A DNA stretch of 64,000 bases from a virus, in the IMG/VR virus record IMGVR_UViG_3300046786_000748, positions 1-64,000 of that record; one strand, 5' to 3'. Both the position numbers and the translations under genes were made by a program. The notes under the pieces were generated by a model that did not search any database, was not told the origin of the DNA, and was given only the letters and a program-made list of their open reading frames with translations. Each line of letters starts with the position of its first letter. Position 1 is the first letter of the stretch. Below are positions 45,307 to 58,542 of the stretch, in pieces.

Positions 45307-46185
45307 TTAAACTCTTGGTGTAAAATTAACAGGGTCATAAATAGCTGTCATTTCTTTAATAAACGGTTTCATTACTTCATCTTTTAATGCTTCCTGAAAA
45401 CAGTCTTCCCAAGATTTTACTTTTGGATTTCCAATCTCGTTTAATTCAGGATTGTTATGAATTTCCCTAGCTTTTGAAGCCCATTTGGAAGCAGCCTGTG
45501 TTCTCCACTTGTCTTTATCACCACTCTTTTTGTTTCTAAAAGTCAATTCAAAAGATAATTGTTTACCATTCTCAAATATAGCAGAAATTGATTGACTTCC
45601 TTCATGTACAAACCACCCATCTCCCTGTCTAAAACTTTCATTAATTGGTGCTGTTTCCTGAGTTTCCCTAGACATCCCCTTCCAATCAGAATGGTCTACA
45701 CCCCAGTTTTTAACATAAGGTTTCATTCTTTCACTACTTAATGCTTCGACAAAACATTCTTTCCAAGATTTTCTTTTGAAATAAGGATCATTTGGATCTG
45801 TTGGACGAATTCTTGAGTTGTGTAGTCTATGAATCTTTTGAGTTTCAATCATCCACCTTCTAACCGCCTTTTTACCCCACTCTTGTATCTTTCTAAACTC
45901 CGGTCTGTAAGGACCAATAGAATTACCAACCAATTCTCCAAGTTCTTGTGGATATTGAACTTCAAACCAAATTCTTGCTTGTTCTCGGTGATATCCCTCA
46001 GGACCTATGTAAACACAAGCACCTGTAGTTCCACTTTCCCAATCATTTGCTCCTTGATAAGCAGACCAACCATTCCCCTGTTCAAACATATCAAAATTTT
46101 CAGGAACACGAAATGGTTTGGCGTCTTTAGACGACACAAACCCAGGAACATAGAGTTCTTCTAAAAGGTGTTTTAAGTGAATCAT
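45307..46185 (-). CDS. Hypothetical protein with two tandem homologous domains, candidate internal head protein
   Basis: MIHLKHLLEE leader; G.GW...G ... SW(K/E).CF.EAL....MKP(Y/F).K occurs twice; ends IYDPVNFTPRV. Confidence 0.7.
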   Translation of the reverse strand: MIHLKHLLEELYVPGFVSSKDAKPFRVPENFDMFEQGNGWSAYQGANDWESGTTGACVYIGPEGYHREQARIWFEVQYPQELGELVGNSIGPYRPEFRKIQEWGKKAVRRWMIETQKIHRLHNSRIRPTDPNDPYFKRKSWKECFVEALSSERMKPYVKNWGVDHSDWKGMSRETQETAPINESFRQGDGWFVHEGSQSISAIFENGKQLSFELTFRNKKSGDKDKWRTQAASKWASKAREIHNNPELNEIGNPKVKSWEDCFQEALKDEVMKPFIKEMTAIYDPVNFTPRV

Positions 46186-46186
46186 A

Positions 46187-46990
46187 TCAAATTATAAATA
46201 TCGGATTCTTATTACAAAACTCGTCTAATGCTTTGAATAATTCAACATTATTAGCCCACTCCTTAAGTGGTTTCTGTTCATCTTCCGGATTTTCATCCGA
46301 AACAACAGGTTCTTCTTCTGGCTCTTGTGGAGTTTGCATCGGATCATCAACAGGTTTTGTAGCTACTGTAGGTTCTAGTTCTGGCTCAGGAGTTTGAGTT
46401 GGATCAATCGGTTTTTCCAATTCTGGCTCAGGTTCTTCTGGTGGTAATTTTTCCTTGGGAGGAGTTGTTGGAACAGCCACAGGAGTTTGATTGGGTGGTT
46501 GTGTTGGGTCGGGAGAAGGAACAGGTTCGCCTTCAATATTAGTTCTTAAATACTCTTTTAAAGCAATAAGATGTTTACAAAGACCAGGACCACGGTTAAT
46601 AGAAGATGGATAGTTCAATCCTTTGTTCAAACTACCAGGACCGTTTTCACCTGCGTCTTGTTGTTTATTAGCATAACTAAATCTAAACCTATAATCAGGA
46701 CAACTGCAATCAACTGAACAAGGAACTTTCATTGCGTTATCGCCAGGATTCATTTCTTCTTTGTAAAAATAAATAAACCCTTGGTGTCTCAATCCCGTAG
46801 TATTTTCGTCTCTAGGAGTTTTATAAGAAAATTTCCAAGCCTCTCTGTCGTTTATAGATTTAGCTACAAGAGATTTTGCTGGGATTCTATTCGCTCTGTC
46901 TTTTCTAGCAGAATCAGAAGCACGCATGAGATCTTCATAAGACATTTTCTCAACAAGCATTTCTGAAATTAATGAACGAAGTTTAATCAT
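46187..46990 (-). CDS. SWIM-type zinc-finger protein with Pro/Glu-rich tail
   Basis: VDCSCPDY...GLCKHL (CxC...CxH); MIKLRSLISE leader. Confidence 0.7.
   Translation of the reverse strand: MIKLRSLISEMLVEKMSYEDLMRASDSARKDRANRIPAKSLVAKSINDREAWKFSYKTPRDENTTGLRHQGFIYFYKEEMNPGDNAMKVPCSVDCSCPDYRFRFSYANKQQDAGENGPGSLNKGLNYPSSINRGPGLCKHLIALKEYLRTNIEGEPVPSPDPTQPPNQTPVAVPTTPPKEKLPPEEPEPELEKPIDPTQTPEPELEPTVATKPVDDPMQTPQEPEEEPVVSDENPEDEQKPLKEWANNVELFKALDEFCNKNPIFII
46193..46200 (-). promoter_or_regulatory. TATTTATA late-promoter-like motif
   Basis: Embedded in the last codons of the SWIM gene, 7 nt before ATG 46185. Confidence 0.55.
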
Positions 46991-46991
46991 A

Positions 46992-47549
46992 TTAGTTGAA
47001 TCCCAATCTCATAACCATCGTTGTTAAAATTGGACATTGAAATTTGTTTTTATCATAATACATCCATTCAATAGTACCTTCACTATCAAACTTAGAACCA
47101 TCTCCTGTTTTTTTAGAAGGTTCTTTATCACCAACATCAACTGCGTATAAATAATAAATAGTATCTGTTGATTTAGTACCTCTACAAGTTCCCAATGATT
47201 TCAAATCTTTCTCTTTTACTTCATATCCACTTTCTTCTTTAATTTCTTTTACAGCAGTTTCTTCAGGAGACATGCCTTTTTCACAACCACCTGTCAAAGC
47301 AGATAAGTTCTTTTCTTTCCCCCAAGCAGGAGTAACTTCTTTTCTAACCCCATATTCCCACGCATCCCTACCTTTTCTTCTATACAATAAAACCCCTACT
47401 ATTTTACCCTGACAACGTTCTTCGTGGAGATAAAAATAACCATCTTCGTCTTTAACAAGTTTAATTTTTTTAATGGAAATCCACTCGTTTTCATAAACGG
47501 TTTCTTCTTTTTTATTTCCTTCACAGAGAAGATGTTTTAACTTAATCAT
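46992..47549 (-). CDS. Nudix hydrolase
   Basis: Slightly degenerate Nudix box GGCEKGMSPEETAVKEIKEESGY; MIKLKHLLCE leader. Confidence 0.8.
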   Translation of the reverse strand: MIKLKHLLCEGNKKEETVYENEWISIKKIKLVKDEDGYFYLHEERCQGKIVGVLLYRRKGRDAWEYGVRKEVTPAWGKEKNLSALTGGCEKGMSPEETAVKEIKEESGYEVKEKDLKSLGTCRGTKSTDTIYYLYAVDVGDKEPSKKTGDGSKFDSEGTIEWMYYDKNKFQCPILTTMVMRLGFN

Positions 47550-47557
47550 AAATCAAA

Positions 47558-47565
47558 TATAAATA
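47558..47565 (-). promoter_or_regulatory. TATTTATA late-promoter-like motif
   Basis: 8 nt before ATG 47549, abutting the stop codon of the GIY-YIG gene. Confidence 0.6.
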
Positions 47566-48333
47566 TTACGATATTAACTCGTTCTTAAGTTTTCTTTTAT
47601 GATACTTTACAGCACTTATACTGATTTTATATTTTGTTGAAAGTTGAATAATTGTATGTTGGTCGGATAAAATATCTTTAATTAAGTCCGATTTAATTTT
47701 CTTTAAAATTTGTTTATTGAGTTTTATTTTCTGTTTGTTTTCTTCTGACATTGGACCCAAAACCATTCCGGACCTTCGGTTTGGATTACTGTAGTTCATT
47801 GTTCTATTTTTTAACATAATTCGCCGATCATTAAACTTTTGTTGACCCACTTCTTTTCCATATTTGTTTGTAAACCACTCCATAGAGAACCTACCCTTCG
47901 CTTTTTCTTTTTGTAGTTGTTTGGATTCCTCTGTGTGGTTTCTGCCATACATAGGATTGTTTTCACCTAATGAAATAGTCCTCATTTTTTCAATAAACAC
48001 ATCTCTATTTGGATTATATGTTATATTATCACCACCGTTGGCTGTCGGACATATGTTATATCCGATATCTCTCATGTAAGGTTTAAACAAATCCAGATAA
48101 TGTTGTTCTCTATCCAAGAGAATAATTTTTTCCGAAAGAGTTTCTTCAACAATTTCAAACAGGAATTTATCGTTGCCATAAAAATCCCAGGCGTGTTGAA
48201 GTTTTGGGTTTATATGATATCCACCATTTAGATATTGTTTGTGTTCTTCCCACCTATAATCTATATCTTTAGCAGAACCGATATAAAATTTTCCGTTAAC
48301 AGTATTAGTTATTTTGTAAATTCCACTTTTCAT
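47566..48333 (-). CDS. GIY-YIG homing endonuclease (Seg-like) downstream of the major capsid gene
   Basis: SGIYKITNTVNGKFYIGSA...RW.EH...HINPKLQHAW...REQHYLD...GYNI; NUMOD3-like GENNPMYGRNHTEESK. Confidence 0.9.
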   Translation of the reverse strand: MKSGIYKITNTVNGKFYIGSAKDIDYRWEEHKQYLNGGYHINPKLQHAWDFYGNDKFLFEIVEETLSEKIILLDREQHYLDLFKPYMRDIGYNICPTANGGDNITYNPNRDVFIEKMRTISLGENNPMYGRNHTEESKQLQKEKAKGRFSMEWFTNKYGKEVGQQKFNDRRIMLKNRTMNYSNPNRRSGMVLGPMSEENKQKIKLNKQILKKIKSDLIKDILSDQHTIIQLSTKYKISISAVKYHKRKLKNELIS

Positions 48334-48338
48334 ATGTC

Positions 48339-48381
48339 TATAAATATCATGAATTTTACGGAATAATCAAACATTTGTCAA
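48339..48381 (-). promoter_or_regulatory. sigma70-type promoter (TTGACA-17-TAAAAT) plus TATTTATA motif upstream of the GIY-YIG gene
   Basis: -35 at 48376-48381, -10 at 48353-48358 with 17-nt spacer; TATTTATA at 48339-48346, 5 nt before ATG 48333. Confidence 0.65.
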
Positions 48382-48432
48382 CATTTTATTTTGAACATAT
48401 TATATGAAATTTATTGAGTAAATAAATGCAAG

Positions 48433-48460
48433 AAAAAGAGCCTCATTTCTGAGGCTCTTT
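48433..48460 (-). terminator. Rho-independent terminator after the major capsid gene
   Basis: aaagagcctca/tgaggctcttt stem, T-tract on the minus strand. Confidence 0.85.
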
Positions 48461-48487: not shown

Positions 48488-50215
48488 TTATACTTGATTT
48501 AAATCGCCTACCAAAATGCGCCCGTAAAATTCTGGGCGGACTATCTTCTTCGCATATCTTGTCATTACACCACGTCTTGGCGTGAAGTTCACTGGATCGT
48601 AGACTAGAGGAGTCTGAACGAGTGGGATATATGGAGCATAGACAGCACCAGTTTCGAGGAAGTTATTTCCACGGAAACCAACAAGAATTACGTTGTCGGT
48701 CATATATGGGTTCTTGTAAACCTGGAATCTTGAAGCAAAGCTTCCGACTCTGGTTACGCCCATTGCGAACTTGGCTTGGTCACCATCGGTATTTACTGCC
48801 CATCCTGGGATGGATTCAAGGATGGTTGCGACATCTGGCGAGCAAACGAGGAAGTTAGCACCACCACGGAGGGTCAACTGGTGAATCTTGTTACTAACCT
48901 TCTGAATCTTGATACCCAACGTGCGGTACCATGTATCCTTGGTGTAATATCCACCTGTTCCTGCAACGGATTGATCAACGACTGCGTATGTTCCATCACC
49001 GTTGGAGAGGATTTCACGATTGAGCTTAGCAGACCATCTTTCGGTGGTGATTGCTGGAGCATTCGTGATTAACATGTCGAGGATTTCAAGGTCGATTTCC
49101 ATTGAAACGTACTCAGACAACAGAGCAGTAAGTTCTGCTTCTGCGTCAATGCTGTGATAAGCATTCAAGTCTTGAGCAAGTTCTGGAGTCCAGACTGCTT
49201 TCAACTTACGAGTCTTGGCGACGATAGGTTCGCTCTTAAGTTCCAAATTAACTTCTGGGATACCGATATCGTTATTTAATCCAAATGTAGCATCTGGAGA
49301 ACCACGATCTTCGAAGTCACCACGGTTGGCATCTTTAGGCTGTACTGAGTAAATAACAGTCCAAGTTCCACCAGCGGCATTTGCACCACCACCACCCATA
49401 CCTGGAGCACCACCCAATGTTGCGGAAGCAGTTACGAGGAAGACAACTTCGGTTCCGAATTGTTTGGTTAATGCTGGGTAATACGATGCGGATGTATTAG
49501 TTGGAGTAAACAACGATGCGGATTGTGCTGGTCCATAAAGAACAAAGCTACGAACTCCATTTGCGTCGAATACGTTACCAGCTGCTGTGGTCTGTGAATA
49601 GAGGTTAGTTGTAGCAACCTTCCAAATCTTACCAGCGGCCAGTGAAGATGACAAACTTACATCCCAGTTGATATCTTCCATCGAAGCAGAAGAAACTAAG
49701 ACTGTAGCGGTTGTGTTTTTATCATTTACAGTATATCCGAAACGGCCGGAACCATAAAGACCACCGGTTGCTGAATCAGTCGAACCGAGTTTCGTACCCG
49801 TTCCACCGTAAAGAGATTGCGAGGTTGTTCCACCACCCTGACCGTCCTTGTAGAACTGACCTTGGTTTGTTCCATACTTGAAATCAAGATAGAATACGAG
49901 ACCAGAAGGAAGATTCATTGGCTGAACCGAGACGAATTCCTTAGCAGCGATTTCTGCGAATACACGACGAACGAGTGGAAGAGCGACGCCTGCCCATTGT
50001 TCGGAGTTTGAAGATACACCAGTCTGACTGGCTTCTTCGATAAGCTGCTTGGCTTGGTTTTCAAGCAATACAGCCATGTTGGATTTTTCCATGTCATTCT
50101 TCAAACCTTCAAGCAAGCCTGTCTTATCCCACTTGGAGACGAGACCACGGGTTTCTTGCATCAAACGAGCCTGAGGATTCATGGTGTTTGTCAATAGTGA
50201 CTTTACATCATTCAT
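48488..50215 (-). CDS. gp23: Major capsid protein (T4 gp23-like)
   Basis: LPLVRRVF, VSVQPMNLPSGLVFYLDF, AKTRKLKAVWTPELAQDLNAYHSIDAEAELT, YAPYIPL, DPVNFTPRRGVMTRY. Confidence 0.95.
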   Translation of the reverse strand: MNDVKSLLTNTMNPQARLMQETRGLVSKWDKTGLLEGLKNDMEKSNMAVLLENQAKQLIEEASQTGVSSNSEQWAGVALPLVRRVFAEIAAKEFVSVQPMNLPSGLVFYLDFKYGTNQGQFYKDGQGGGTTSQSLYGGTGTKLGSTDSATGGLYGSGRFGYTVNDKNTTATVLVSSASMEDINWDVSLSSSLAAGKIWKVATTNLYSQTTAAGNVFDANGVRSFVLYGPAQSASLFTPTNTSASYYPALTKQFGTEVVFLVTASATLGGAPGMGGGGANAAGGTWTVIYSVQPKDANRGDFEDRGSPDATFGLNNDIGIPEVNLELKSEPIVAKTRKLKAVWTPELAQDLNAYHSIDAEAELTALLSEYVSMEIDLEILDMLITNAPAITTERWSAKLNREILSNGDGTYAVVDQSVAGTGGYYTKDTWYRTLGIKIQKVSNKIHQLTLRGGANFLVCSPDVATILESIPGWAVNTDGDQAKFAMGVTRVGSFASRFQVYKNPYMTDNVILVGFRGNNFLETGAVYAPYIPLVQTPLVYDPVNFTPRRGVMTRYAKKIVRPEFYGRILVGDLNQV

Positions 50216-50255: not shown

Positions 50256-51545
50256 TTACTTTTTCGCAGGAATACCAGCGAGCTTCTGGAATCTCTGTGC
50301 CATCTGATTAACACCTTCGGTGATAACCTCTTTAGATGGTTTCGTTGACGCTACAGGCTTGGATGCTGCACCCTCGGTGATCGTAGTAACTTGATTGATT
50401 GGGTTCTGCGAGAGAGCCTTTCTCTTCAAGTTTCCACCAAGATTTAATGATTCACACCAATTTGCGTATGTCATCTTAACTTCACGAACGCATTTTGTAA
50501 GATCAAATGCTTCCACGACCTTTGTTTTTTGGTCACGGTTCATACCAAACTCCTTAAACAGCTTGTTCGTGTAAAGCAGTTTTGCGTTTAGTAGATTGAT
50601 CTCATTAAGTTGTTTCTGTAAATACTCTACAGTCTTGTAGGCTTCATTACGTTCAGAAGTTACTTCATTAAGTTGAGTTTGAAGAGCAACGGTTTCATCA
50701 CACTTCTCTTCCTTATCGTCTTCTTCCTTCTCTTCTTCCTTCTCTTCTTTAGCCTCTTCATTGAGACTTGCGAGTAATTCATTCAAATCAATTTCTTCCT
50801 CTTCCATAGGAGCTGGTTCCTCAGTTGGAGGAGCACCGGCGTCTGGTCCACCCATTGGAGGAACTTCGCCGCCTGGAGGAGGAGGCGTTCCACCAACAGG
50901 AGCTTCAACCTTAGAAATTACAACAGTGTCACCACTCTTGATTTCTTGAGATTCTTCGCCTGGGGTTTCTTCGCCTGGAACTTCATCGTCACCTGGAACT
51001 GGAGGTCCGCCGGCGTCACCACCTGGAACTGGAGGCATGTCATCCATAGGAGCAGCACCAGCTTCGGCTTCAAGCTCACGAATAATTTCATCCAAATCTT
51101 CGTTTGTTACAGTTTCTTCAACTGATTCCTCTTCAACAGCACCTTCTGTTGCGTTTTCTTTAACTCCTTTGGGAGTTCCGTCAAATGCGTTACCTTTGTT
51201 ATCCTTAGACCAACCTTTGGTTCCATCTCCACCGTCTTTAGCAGAAGGAATTGTGTTTGGGGTGATGTTTTTATCGGTAGGTTTTGGACCTGCGTTGTCT
51301 TTAGACCAACTCTTAGTGCCATCGTTCTTAGATGGTTTTGCATCCTTTGGTTCTACAGTTTCAGCAACAGGGGCATCGACTGATGGTTGGGATTCGGTTG
51401 CAGAATCTTCTCTCAATTTATCTGCAAATACAGCCGAAAAACGACTGTTAAAAGCTTCCTCAAGGGATGCTTTAGCATTTGCTAATGCTGTGGCTCTAAC
51501 GGCCTTTGCATCGGCAATAGCTTCTTTTAATAGATTACTATTCAT
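50256..51545 (-). CDS. Prohead scaffolding / core protein (T4 gp22-like position)
   Basis: Acidic, Pro/Gly-rich, coiled-coil LNEINLLNAKLLY, C-terminal RFQKLAGI; many (L/I/V)xE sites; directly upstream of the capsid gene. Confidence 0.8.
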   Translation of the reverse strand: MNSNLLKEAIADAKAVRATALANAKASLEEAFNSRFSAVFADKLREDSATESQPSVDAPVAETVEPKDAKPSKNDGTKSWSKDNAGPKPTDKNITPNTIPSAKDGGDGTKGWSKDNKGNAFDGTPKGVKENATEGAVEEESVEETVTNEDLDEIIRELEAEAGAAPMDDMPPVPGGDAGGPPVPGDDEVPGEETPGEESQEIKSGDTVVISKVEAPVGGTPPPPGGEVPPMGGPDAGAPPTEEPAPMEEEEIDLNELLASLNEEAKEEKEEEKEEDDKEEKCDETVALQTQLNEVTSERNEAYKTVEYLQKQLNEINLLNAKLLYTNKLFKEFGMNRDQKTKVVEAFDLTKCVREVKMTYANWCESLNLGGNLKRKALSQNPINQVTTITEGAASKPVASTKPSKEVITEGVNQMAQRFQKLAGIPAKK

Positions 51546-57924: not shown

Positions 57925-58542
57925 TTAAACGATTTCACTGAAAATGTCTTGAATGATACTTTCTGCTGTAACCCATTTTCCGTTAATTGGGTTTTGTACA
58001 ACTTGTTTTACACCTTCTGTTAAAGCACCAGATGGAAACATAAATGCTCCTCTTGTTGAAGGATTGGAAACAAAATCAAAAGCAATCAATTCAAAATCGT
58101 CTTGAACCTGATCAACACCTTCGGAAATTTTCTTAATAGTTCCAAGACCACGACTGGAAATTCCAAGACGAATGTTGGAACGGAAAAGTTCTTTCAAGAT
58201 GTTACCGCTTGGAGTTCCAAGAACTTCAACGGTTCCCATAAGATCTTTACCTTCCCAATGCATTTCAATTATGTTATGGGAAACGTTTTTGAGGTTAACT
58301 ACTTGAGATTCTGGATGATCAAGTTCACCAAGAGCACGTCTTTCTTTTATAAAACCCTCTGTATATTTTTGGGCCTCACGCATTAGAGTTTCATATGGAT
58401 AACTACGTCCATTTTGGTTTGTGGCTTCTGCACGCTGGAGAATGCCCTTTACAACGAATGGACCTTTACCGGATAAGGCTTCGGTAAGAGTTTGTCTCAA
58501 AGGTTCAAACGTTATTACGTCAATTAAGAGTTTCTTTTCCAT
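57925..58542 (-). CDS. gp21: Prohead core protein protease (T4 gp21-like)
   Basis: NQNGRSYP, RALGELDHP, VSHNI, TPSGNI, LGISSRGLG, DFVSNPS motifs. Confidence 0.95.
   Translation of the reverse strand: MEKKLLIDVITFEPLRQTLTEALSGKGPFVVKGILQRAEATNQNGRSYPYETLMREAQKYTEGFIKERRALGELDHPESQVVNLKNVSHNIIEMHWEGKDLMGTVEVLGTPSGNILKELFRSNIRLGISSRGLGTIKKISEGVDQVQDDFELIAFDFVSNPSTRGAFMFPSGALTEGVKQVVQNPINGKWVTAESIIQDIFSEIV

Follow-up and report, generated by a model that had tools for sequence, protein, structure and literature searches.

A C-terminal tag that copies a segment of the major capsid protein on a probable head-internal protein of a virus with a gp23-type capsid

The window analyzed in this study is the first 64 kb (64,000 nucleotides) of a virus record that is 104,993 bp long and has a G+C content of 35%. 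It contains a gene for a gp23-type major capsid protein (MCP), which also matches phrog_138 and, in the PDB, T4 gp23 chains at 1e-28. The MCP gene is immediately followed by one for a GIY-YIG endonuclease, the place that segD occupies in T4. A further gene on the strand of the MCP gene, located 2.3 kb downstream, encodes a 292-aa protein that we call the carrier. The positions of these genes, of a gp21-type prohead protease gene and of the features within the carrier are collected in Table 1. A candidate scaffold gene is located at 50256..51545.

Table 1. Genes and sequence features of the window discussed in the text
Feature	Position	Strand	Basis
C-terminal tag of the carrier, MTAIYDPVNFTPRV plus stop (aa 279-292)	45307..45351	-	pLDDT, family
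Tag core YDPVNFTPR (aa 283-291), copy of the MCP loop	45313..45339	-	family conservation
Carrier, 292 aa: leader, X domain 1, I-N-E, X domain 2, I-K-E, tag	45307..46185	-	ORF
I-K-E (aa 276-278), putative gp21-type cleavage site ahead of the tag	45352..45360	-	sequence
X domain 2 (aa 184-278), G.GW..W..CF.EAL..KPFIKE	45352..45636	-	AF2, profile
I-N-E (aa 181-183) between the two X domains	45637..45645	-	comparison with L002
X domain 1 (aa ~30-165), ends WGVDHSDWKGM, without tag	45691..46098	-	AF2, homologs
Leader MIHLKHLLEE, like the T4 capsid-targeting sequence	46156..46185	-	shared start pattern
SWIM-like protein (CxC..CxH) with a leader, 267 aa, directly upstream of the carrier	46187..46990	-	ORF, leader
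TATTTATA box, late-promoter-like, just upstream of the carrier start codon	46193..46200	-	enrichment
Nudix hydrolase with a leader, 185 aa, opens the run of genes	46992..47549	-	Pfam NUDIX 1.9e-08
TATTTATA box before the Nudix gene	47558..47565		
TATTTATA box before the homing endonuclease gene	48339..48346		
gp23-type major capsid protein, 575 aa	48488..50215	-	Pfam Gp23 (PF07068) 4e-77
MCP Y539-R547, YDPVNFTPR, putative P loop or adjoining	48575..48601	-	alignment to T4 gp23
gp21-type prohead protease	57925..58542	-	phrog_207 head maturation protease, 9.6e-51

The C-terminal end of the carrier reads ...FIKEMTAIYDPVNFTPRV*. Its last residues are YDPVNFTPR followed by a single Val, and the same nonapeptide occupies residues 539-547 of the MCP, in the context ...TPLVYDPVNFTPRRG..., with 3.2 kb separating the two motifs. 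The carrier encodes it as TAT GAC CCT GTT AAT TTT ACA CCA AGA and the MCP as TAC GAT CCA GTG AAC TTC ACG CCA AGA. All nine residues are identical, 20 of the 27 nucleotides agree, and the third base differs in seven of the nine codons, which confirms the claim of an earlier note on this DNA that a motif of the MCP is repeated in the carrier by synonymous codons. That note had also suggested computing the chance of a 9-mer match within one proteome. Using a crude proteome of the 105-kb genome (83 genes, 33,586 aa), we obtained an expectation of about 0.008 exact 9-mers shared between proteins. The match between tail and MCP is the sole non-repeat pair in this proteome, and the remaining shared 8-mers all lie within Ser/Thr-rich repeat fibre proteins; together, the low expectation and the uniqueness of the pair make a chance match unlikely. 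A six-frame search for D-P-[VIL]-[NDT]-F-[TS] found no occurrence elsewhere in the genome. BLASTP of the carrier against the MCP gave 12 identities in 23 positions (VMKPFI..YDPVNFTPR versus VYAPYI..YDPVNFTPR). The MKP[FY][IV]K part of this alignment belongs to the carrier domain, since it also closes the first repeat of the 292-aa protein, and neither BLASTP nor tblastn found further homology to the MCP beyond the tail.

An AF2 model of the carrier (20-row alignment, mean pLDDT 70) has two similar alpha/beta domains at residues ~30-165 and 184-278. Residues 1-29 are predicted to be disordered, as are residues 280-292, where pLDDT is below 50. We named the repeat unit, which is recognizable by G.GW ... 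W..CF.EAL ... KP[FY][IV]K, the X domain, and the second copy is modeled with strands at 185-214 and helices at 221-244 and 259-267. No Pfam or PHROG family matched the 292-aa protein, no informative fold for the X domain was found with Foldseek against the PDB, VIA-align wide (best Z 6.0) or the ESM Atlas, and tblastn detected no relative of the carrier among 50,697 deposited phage records. We also considered a cis-docked autoinhibitory tail and rejected it, as the model leaves the tail of the carrier undocked.

Several features point to the compartment in which the carrier may act. Four proteins of the genome, the carrier included, begin with MI[KH]L[KR]xL[LI]xE, and two of the other three, the Nudix hydrolase and the SWIM-like protein, are encoded directly upstream of the carrier. 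Its leader is thus an N-terminal peptide of ~10 aa that ends in [LI]-x-E, in the manner of the T4 capsid-targeting sequence (CTS). The homologs P0017 and P0039 carry the leaders ..TYQQFINE and ..TYRNFINE, which are close to the CTS of T4 internal proteins. The T4 gp21 protease cleaves at [LI]xE, and the I-N-E between the two X domains fits this rule. In the single-domain relative L002, a leader site, ...LIQE, stands immediately before SFRKGDGW, the same start as that of X domain 2, so that the I-N-E ahead of X domain 2 is equivalent to the leader site of L002. In a relative with a complete genome, G001, SWIM-like, Nudix and X domains are fused in one 819-aa polyprotein. The TATTTATA box, one copy of which precedes the carrier gene, occurs 33 times in the window, compared with 16.6 expected copies. 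From the leader, the [LI]xE sites, the gp21-type protease, the late-like box and the head-gene neighbourhood we infer that the carrier is a probable late head-internal protein that would be encapsidated. Cleavage at I-K-E and at the other [LI]xE sites is predicted from the motif.

We analyzed the presence of the tag among relatives of the carrier. A word-based search gave 19 close homologs and a profile of X domain 2 plus tail gave 98 clusters at 50% identity; further loci were added from scans of metagenomes and viral contigs. In total, 77 distinct proteins had the motif [DN]P[VI]NFT after an X domain. Position 0 of the tag is Asp in 73 of these and Asn in four; the Pro is kept in 70, Val is found in 68 and Ile in eight, the Asn is invariant (77/77), Phe is present in 76 and Thr in 71 of 73, and Pro-Arg follows the core in 57-59. 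The motif is C-terminal in 61 relatives, with a distance from Asp to stop of exactly 9 residues, that is, one residue past PR, in 54 of them. It is internal in the other 16, where [LIVT]xE stands directly after it in 14, in protease-type sites reading PRLGES, PRIGET or PRLEEQ; the fully read internal forms run on into a domain of ~130 aa with weak 2H-phosphoesterase signatures. Identity between the X domains of tag-bearing relatives falls to ~30%, and the linker between domain and motif varies from 4 to >21 aa. The earlier note had proposed that cleavage at I-K-E could release a 14-aa peptide: the site is present in the carrier, but it is not conserved, as [LIV]xE stands between domain and motif in only 43 of the 77.

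The tail is also found on a different domain. A 273-aa protein of G001 (genome size 369 kb), whose gene lies ~5 kb downstream of that for the MCP, is made up of a leader, a domain that we call 'GEWW', and a tail ending in ...SAPIIDPINFTRMG*, again with 9 residues from Asp to stop and without an X domain. The tail is thus a portable tag. A tblastn search with this protein returned no match among the 50,697 phage records, and the fusion protein L003 matched hypothetical proteins of crAss-like phages weakly and via its C-terminal domain only. Conversely, many X domains in other contexts have no tag. Homologs without the tail, which the earlier note had regarded as grounds for refutation, do exist within the family but are few: P0007, P0016, P0037 and L047 have no tag or a diverged one, and the last three stop just ahead of the motif (...PIF*), whereas the tail is kept in 77 others. 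With its predicted disorder, variable linker, varied carriers and core that is near-invariant in 77 proteins, the tag has the properties of a short linear motif.

We compared the tag with the MCP loop that it copies. The loop, QTPLVYDPVNFTPRRGVM, is identical in the window and in every related contig that holds both a tag-bearing protein and an MCP, at an overall MCP identity of 66-90%. An alignment of 11 MCPs shows no variation in the motif, and the loop is likewise constant in 80 further contigs of the same MCP clade (55-78% identity), a sample of fragments obtained with a loop pattern that matches Ser as well as Thr and returned MCPs with DPVNFTPRRG. Members of this clade come from soil, freshwater and wetland metagenomes. 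An X domain lies near the MCP in two of these 80 fragmentary contigs and a second copy of the motif near the MCP was found in none, suggesting that only some members of the MCP clade carry the tag, as an accessory. Opposite this fixed loop, tags vary to DPINFTPR, NPVNF*, DAVNFTPRV and DPVNFTRMG, and to DPVNFSPRI in P0072 and P0074, for which a locus search found no related loci; a further variant reads DSVNFT... The earlier note had suggested testing whether the C-termini of homologs co-vary with the cognate capsid motif; in the contigs that hold both proteins, the capsid loop is constant and the slight variation is confined to the tags. The corresponding loops of other MCPs read SDPKNFQPVMG in T4, YDPATFTPRKG in Flavobacterium phage immuto, YDPQNFTPRKG in Microcystis phage Mel-JY01, YDPNNFTPRRG in LR756508, VDPVNFSYRRG in RM378 and LDPESFCPRKG in LR756511. 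At V, T and PR, the residues specific to the clade, the tag agrees with its own MCP and departs from the general gp23 pattern. A search of T4, RM378, immuto, Mel-JY01 and two metagenomic giant phages gave no second loop copy; in the T4 genome, the only other match to D-P-x-x-F-x-[PSTQHY] reads DPNKFKP, at 49.1 kb. An HK97-type Lys-Asn cross-link was rejected, as no catalytic Glu is present at the expected spacing and related MCPs have Thr or Ser in place of the Asn.

Third codon positions of tag and MCP agree at only 0-4 of 6 positions per genome in eight genomes, which excludes gene conversion and shows that selection acts on the peptide; the earlier note had held the peptide and not the DNA to be conserved on the basis of the single pair. 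The comparison indicates that the tag, with the core consensus P-[IV]-x-D-P-V-N-F-T-P-R-x-COOH, is under strong purifying selection at the peptide level. These data bear on the possibility that the tail is a neutral leftover from a duplication of the 3' end of the MCP gene, arisen for example by homing-endonuclease recombination, or a chance match. A GIY-YIG endonuclease gene does lie directly after the MCP gene, and a weak tblastn match continues past the stop codon, with R-Y at an equal offset in both. However, the tag is kept in 77 distinct proteins with diverged domains, at loci with and without an endonuclease, its codons are scrambled while its position relative to the stop is fixed, and the expectation of 0.008 disfavors chance. 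We consider a remnant or a coincidence highly improbable; the earlier note had named a neutral remnant as a finding that would overturn its proposal, and a motif near-invariant in 77 relatives whose domains are ~30% identical leads us to reject it.

The pattern of conservation could alternatively reflect a modification site shared by carrier and MCP, with N-F-T as the sequon-like target of one enzyme, such as a glycosyltransferase, and no mimicry involved. The invariant Asn, the Thr or Ser at position +2 in nearly all tags and the variants NFS and NLT, which retain N-x-S/T, would agree with this. Yet four distinct tags end in NPVNF* and have no Thr, the MCPs of T4 (NFQ), immuto (TFT) and LR756511 (SFC) do not have the pattern, and the identity between tag and loop covers D, P, V and PR, well past a sequon. 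A Pro that follows the sequon is, moreover, unfavourable for known N-glycosylation. A shared modification site is therefore, in our estimation, very unlikely.

To locate the copied segment on the capsid protein we used T4 gp23. HMMER aligned MCP residues 518-555 with gp23 residues 442-478 and placed YDPVNFTPR on S462-V470 (SDPKNFQPV), so that the motif without its Tyr falls on gp23 residues 463-470. Landmarks in T4 are A455 in the P-domain sheet, the AP linker at aa 486-502, and the head-length mutations T457A, R460C and G461S, which map to the junction of the P loops (PMC9546572). The aligned segment thus sits between the P-domain strand with A455 and the AP linker, beside positions 457, 460 and 461. 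Three P loops pack hydrophobically where three T4 capsomers meet, an arrangement unchanged by expansion, and the head-length mutations are thought to act through the conformation of the P loop (PMC9546572). We infer that the copied MCP segment is the P loop, its descending limb, or a stretch adjoining it. The earlier note had proposed locating the motif on a gp23-type structure; the sequence alignment and the published landmarks give it a probable place in the vicinity of the P loop. An AF2 model of the window's MCP (11-row alignment) reached a mean pLDDT of 37, too low to locate the loop.

The proximity of the head-length mutations T457A, R460C and G461S to the aligned segment raises the possibility that the tag is a regulator of assembly, which would compete with the P loops of the MCP, cap capsomer edges or tune the geometry that sets head size and shape. 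The tag retains the hydrophobic V and F, and within one and the same MCP clade tag-carrying genomes span sizes from 105 kb (a contig) to 369 kb, both of which would be compatible with such a function. On the other hand, the carrier shows the features of cargo, namely the leader and the polyprotein arrangement, and many relatives in the MCP clade have no tag near the MCP. We regard a regulatory function as rather unlikely.

Another T4 mutation in this region, the gp31-bypass mutation A455V, is found 8 residues before the aligned segment, suggesting that the P-loop region matters for chaperonin-dependent folding. The tag could accordingly be a decoy that mimics the MCP segment for a chaperone, a protease or a defence sensor that reads unassembled capsid protein. 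Capsid peptides do trigger defences, as in the Gol-Lit and CapRel systems, and the Gol stretch that activates Lit is usually placed at gp23 residues 93-122; we know of no sensor for the P-loop segment of gp23. The motif, at T4 positions 463-470, is thus far from Gol. In addition, the carrier resembles a packaged late protein, and the fixed distance to the C-terminus together with the protease site right after internal copies suggests a role linked to assembly. A decoy appears unlikely to us. The earlier note had preferred a decoy for capsid-sensing defences such as CapRel and Lit; we found no link between these defences and the P loop, and the motif lies outside the Gol region. Its other suggestion, a docking or competition motif in head assembly, fares better, since it fits the CTS-like leader, the [LI]xE sites, the late-like box, the gp21-type protease and the mapping to the P loop. 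A docking or assembly role is thus more likely than a decoy.

Considering the identity of the tag, its conservation and modularity, its predicted disorder and its genomic context, we favor a function as a shell-docking tag on head-internal proteins, to which we assign a probability of about 0.4; the binding itself is putative. The carrier would be made late in infection, with a T4-CTS-like N-terminal leader and two X domains separated by [LI]xE sites. Its disordered C-terminal copy of the MCP loop would then dock the carrier, and any cargo fused to it, onto the capsid lattice during prohead assembly, at or beside the P-loop junctions, through the same hydrophobic Val and Phe that the MCP loops may use for contacts among themselves. 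The gp21-type protease would subsequently trim the leader and, where sites exist, release the cargo. More tentatively, and with a lower probability, loading itself could work by self-mimicry. The tag would then stand in for a P loop within the MCP lattice, next to clusters of three loops or at sites that lack a partner loop, for example around the portal, and would thereby physically couple core and cargo to the growing shell.

Several points count against docking. The loop in the MCP is held by flanking strands, and a free peptide need not take that shape; a junction already filled by three loops may lack space for a fourth. The N-terminal leader alone may suffice for loading, by analogy with T4. 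Cleavage at [LIV]xE, which 43 of the 77 relatives have ahead of the motif, would detach the tag, so that anchoring would be transient in these proteins. Finally, the tag is accessory within the MCP clade, with no second copy near the MCP in the 80 contigs sampled, which are fragments.

The mechanisms that localise proteins in the T4 core 'remain mysterious' according to a review of the T4 head (PMC9958956). A conserved tag that copies an inter-capsomer loop of the MCP provides a concrete hypothesis for the coupling of core or cargo to the shell, and one that can be tested with peptides. Should the tag bind, it would offer, in addition to the N-terminal CTS, a compact means of bringing foreign proteins into such capsids. 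If it is a surrogate P loop, it would represent a new portable route for addressing proteins to the inside of T4-type capsids.

We compared the tag with known systems in which proteins are placed inside capsids or in which a capsid peptide has a function of its own. The CTS of T4 is carried by the internal proteins IPII and IPIII and removed by the gp21 protease (Mullaney & Black 1996, cited in PMC9958956). It resembles the arrangement described here in being a short terminal peptide on unrelated head-internal proteins, with [LI]xE sites and a gp21-type protease, and the carrier itself bears such a leader at its N-terminus. The tag differs in being C-terminal, a second signal on the same protein and a copy of an MCP loop, whereas the CTS does not resemble gp23 and is believed to work via the scaffolding core. 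The leader, the protease and the general frame of internal proteins are thus already known; the second, C-terminal tag that mimics the MCP is new.

The P loop of T4 gp23 itself (7VS5, 7VRT, 5VF3; PMC9546572) has the D-P-x-N-F-x-P core in common with the tag, but the T4 genome contains no second copy of the loop. The Gol peptide, which acts in Lit/EF-Tu exclusion, is likewise a linear stretch of a gp23-type MCP that has its own function. It derives from the N-terminal third of the MCP and not from the P loop, however, and a link of the tag to defence was not found.

The cargo-loading peptides of encapsulins are, like the tag, short, disordered and C-terminal, attached through a flexible linker, portable, and directed to the interior of a shell with the HK97 fold. 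They bind a groove on the luminal side of the encapsulin shell, are unrelated in sequence and do not copy a loop of the shell, whereas binding of the tag is putative. The Gly/Ser/Leu-rich consensus of these peptides is absent from the tag (P[IV]xDPVNFTPRx) and the shell here is a phage MCP, so that the likeness is functional only. In phage P1, the internal head proteins DarA and Hdf are fixed at defined sites of the inner shell (PMC12810830). These are protease-processed anti-restriction proteins that sit at capsomer junctions on the inner surface and travel with the DNA, which is the likeness to the arrangement proposed here (PMC12810830). They differ in binding via folded domains or helices at penton-hexon junctions, mimicry of an MCP peptide is not reported for them, and they have no sequence relation to the carrier (PMC12810830). 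Overall, the T4 CTS, the encapsulin peptides and P1 DarA/Hdf all differ from the tag of the carrier in that they do not employ a copied loop of the shell protein itself.

The MCP loop that the tag copies, DPVNFTPRRG, is identical in the MCPs of at least 120 viral contigs (a sampled set including L084-L163) whose overall identity to the window MCP is only 55-78%, and few other parts of the MCP vary so little. In one subgroup, proteins with X domains close on a truncated tag, ...APIVNPVNF. Because these tags coexist with MCPs that retain DPVNFTPRRG, P-V-N-F is suggested as the minimal tag core.

The Nudix, SWIM-like and X-X-tag genes are adjacent in the window and all carry the leader, whereas in the relative G001 (complete, 369 kb) the same three genes match domains within one 819-aa polyprotein (loci L204 with L210). 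Sites of the ..IFE type connect the domains of this polyprotein, and we take its GIDGSGKTT region for a thymidylate kinase. The difference between separate genes and polyprotein is a gene fission or fusion of putative head cargo. A second undescribed domain of ∼240 aa (GEWWI..G...A.IDIG.SGHEG..I.H) recurs N-terminal to X domains or immediately N-terminal to the tag and is accompanied by a separate leader class, ..LK.LIRHIV.E. X domains without the tag are also present in very large proteins of 1,200-2,230 aa (carrier homologs P0031, P0038, P0087, P0101, P0107, and P0113), and many polyproteins share a conserved C-terminal module, KP[IV]NIFE..KQFA..NP.F.V.YED. A domain of ∼130 aa with HxT..HxT-like motifs and weak Pfam matches to 2H phosphoesterases (tRNA_lig_CPD) comes after the tag in distant relatives; the domain in L021 also matched 2_5_RNA_ligase2 and Acb1 weakly. 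These domains may be enzymes that are carried in the capsid and then injected.

Features of the window and of related loci
Feature	Location	Remarks
Nudix, SWIM-like, X-X-tag run	window 45307-47549	
GIY-YIG/NUMOD3 homing endonuclease gene	window 47566-48333	directly downstream of MCP gene
G+C-rich hairpin, then T run	window 48430-48455	directly past MCP stop codon
429-aa ORF	window 50256-51545	directly upstream of MCP gene
819-aa polyprotein	G001:95023-97479	leader, Nudix, P-loop-kinase-like GIDGSGKTT region, X, SWIM-like
GEWW-type domain	L210:709-1527	also P0018, P0044, P0046, P0058, P0008
X protein with truncated tag	L006:184-723	also L020, L027, L032
Tag, then ∼130-aa domain	L003:10409-10813; L004:10433-10828; L021:8855-10606	

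The 429-aa ORF had no match in Pfam or PHROG and is, by its position, a candidate for the scaffold (gp22). On the other side of the MCP gene, the hairpin and T run look like an intrinsic terminator and precede the TATTTATA box of the homing endonuclease gene, which occupies the same position as segD after gene 23 in T4. Across the whole window, TATTTATW occurs 33 times (16.6 expected), and it frequently lies 5-15 nt upstream of the start codon of a structural or leader-bearing gene. This box is a candidate late promoter of the window phage, comparable to the late promoter of T4, TATAAATA.
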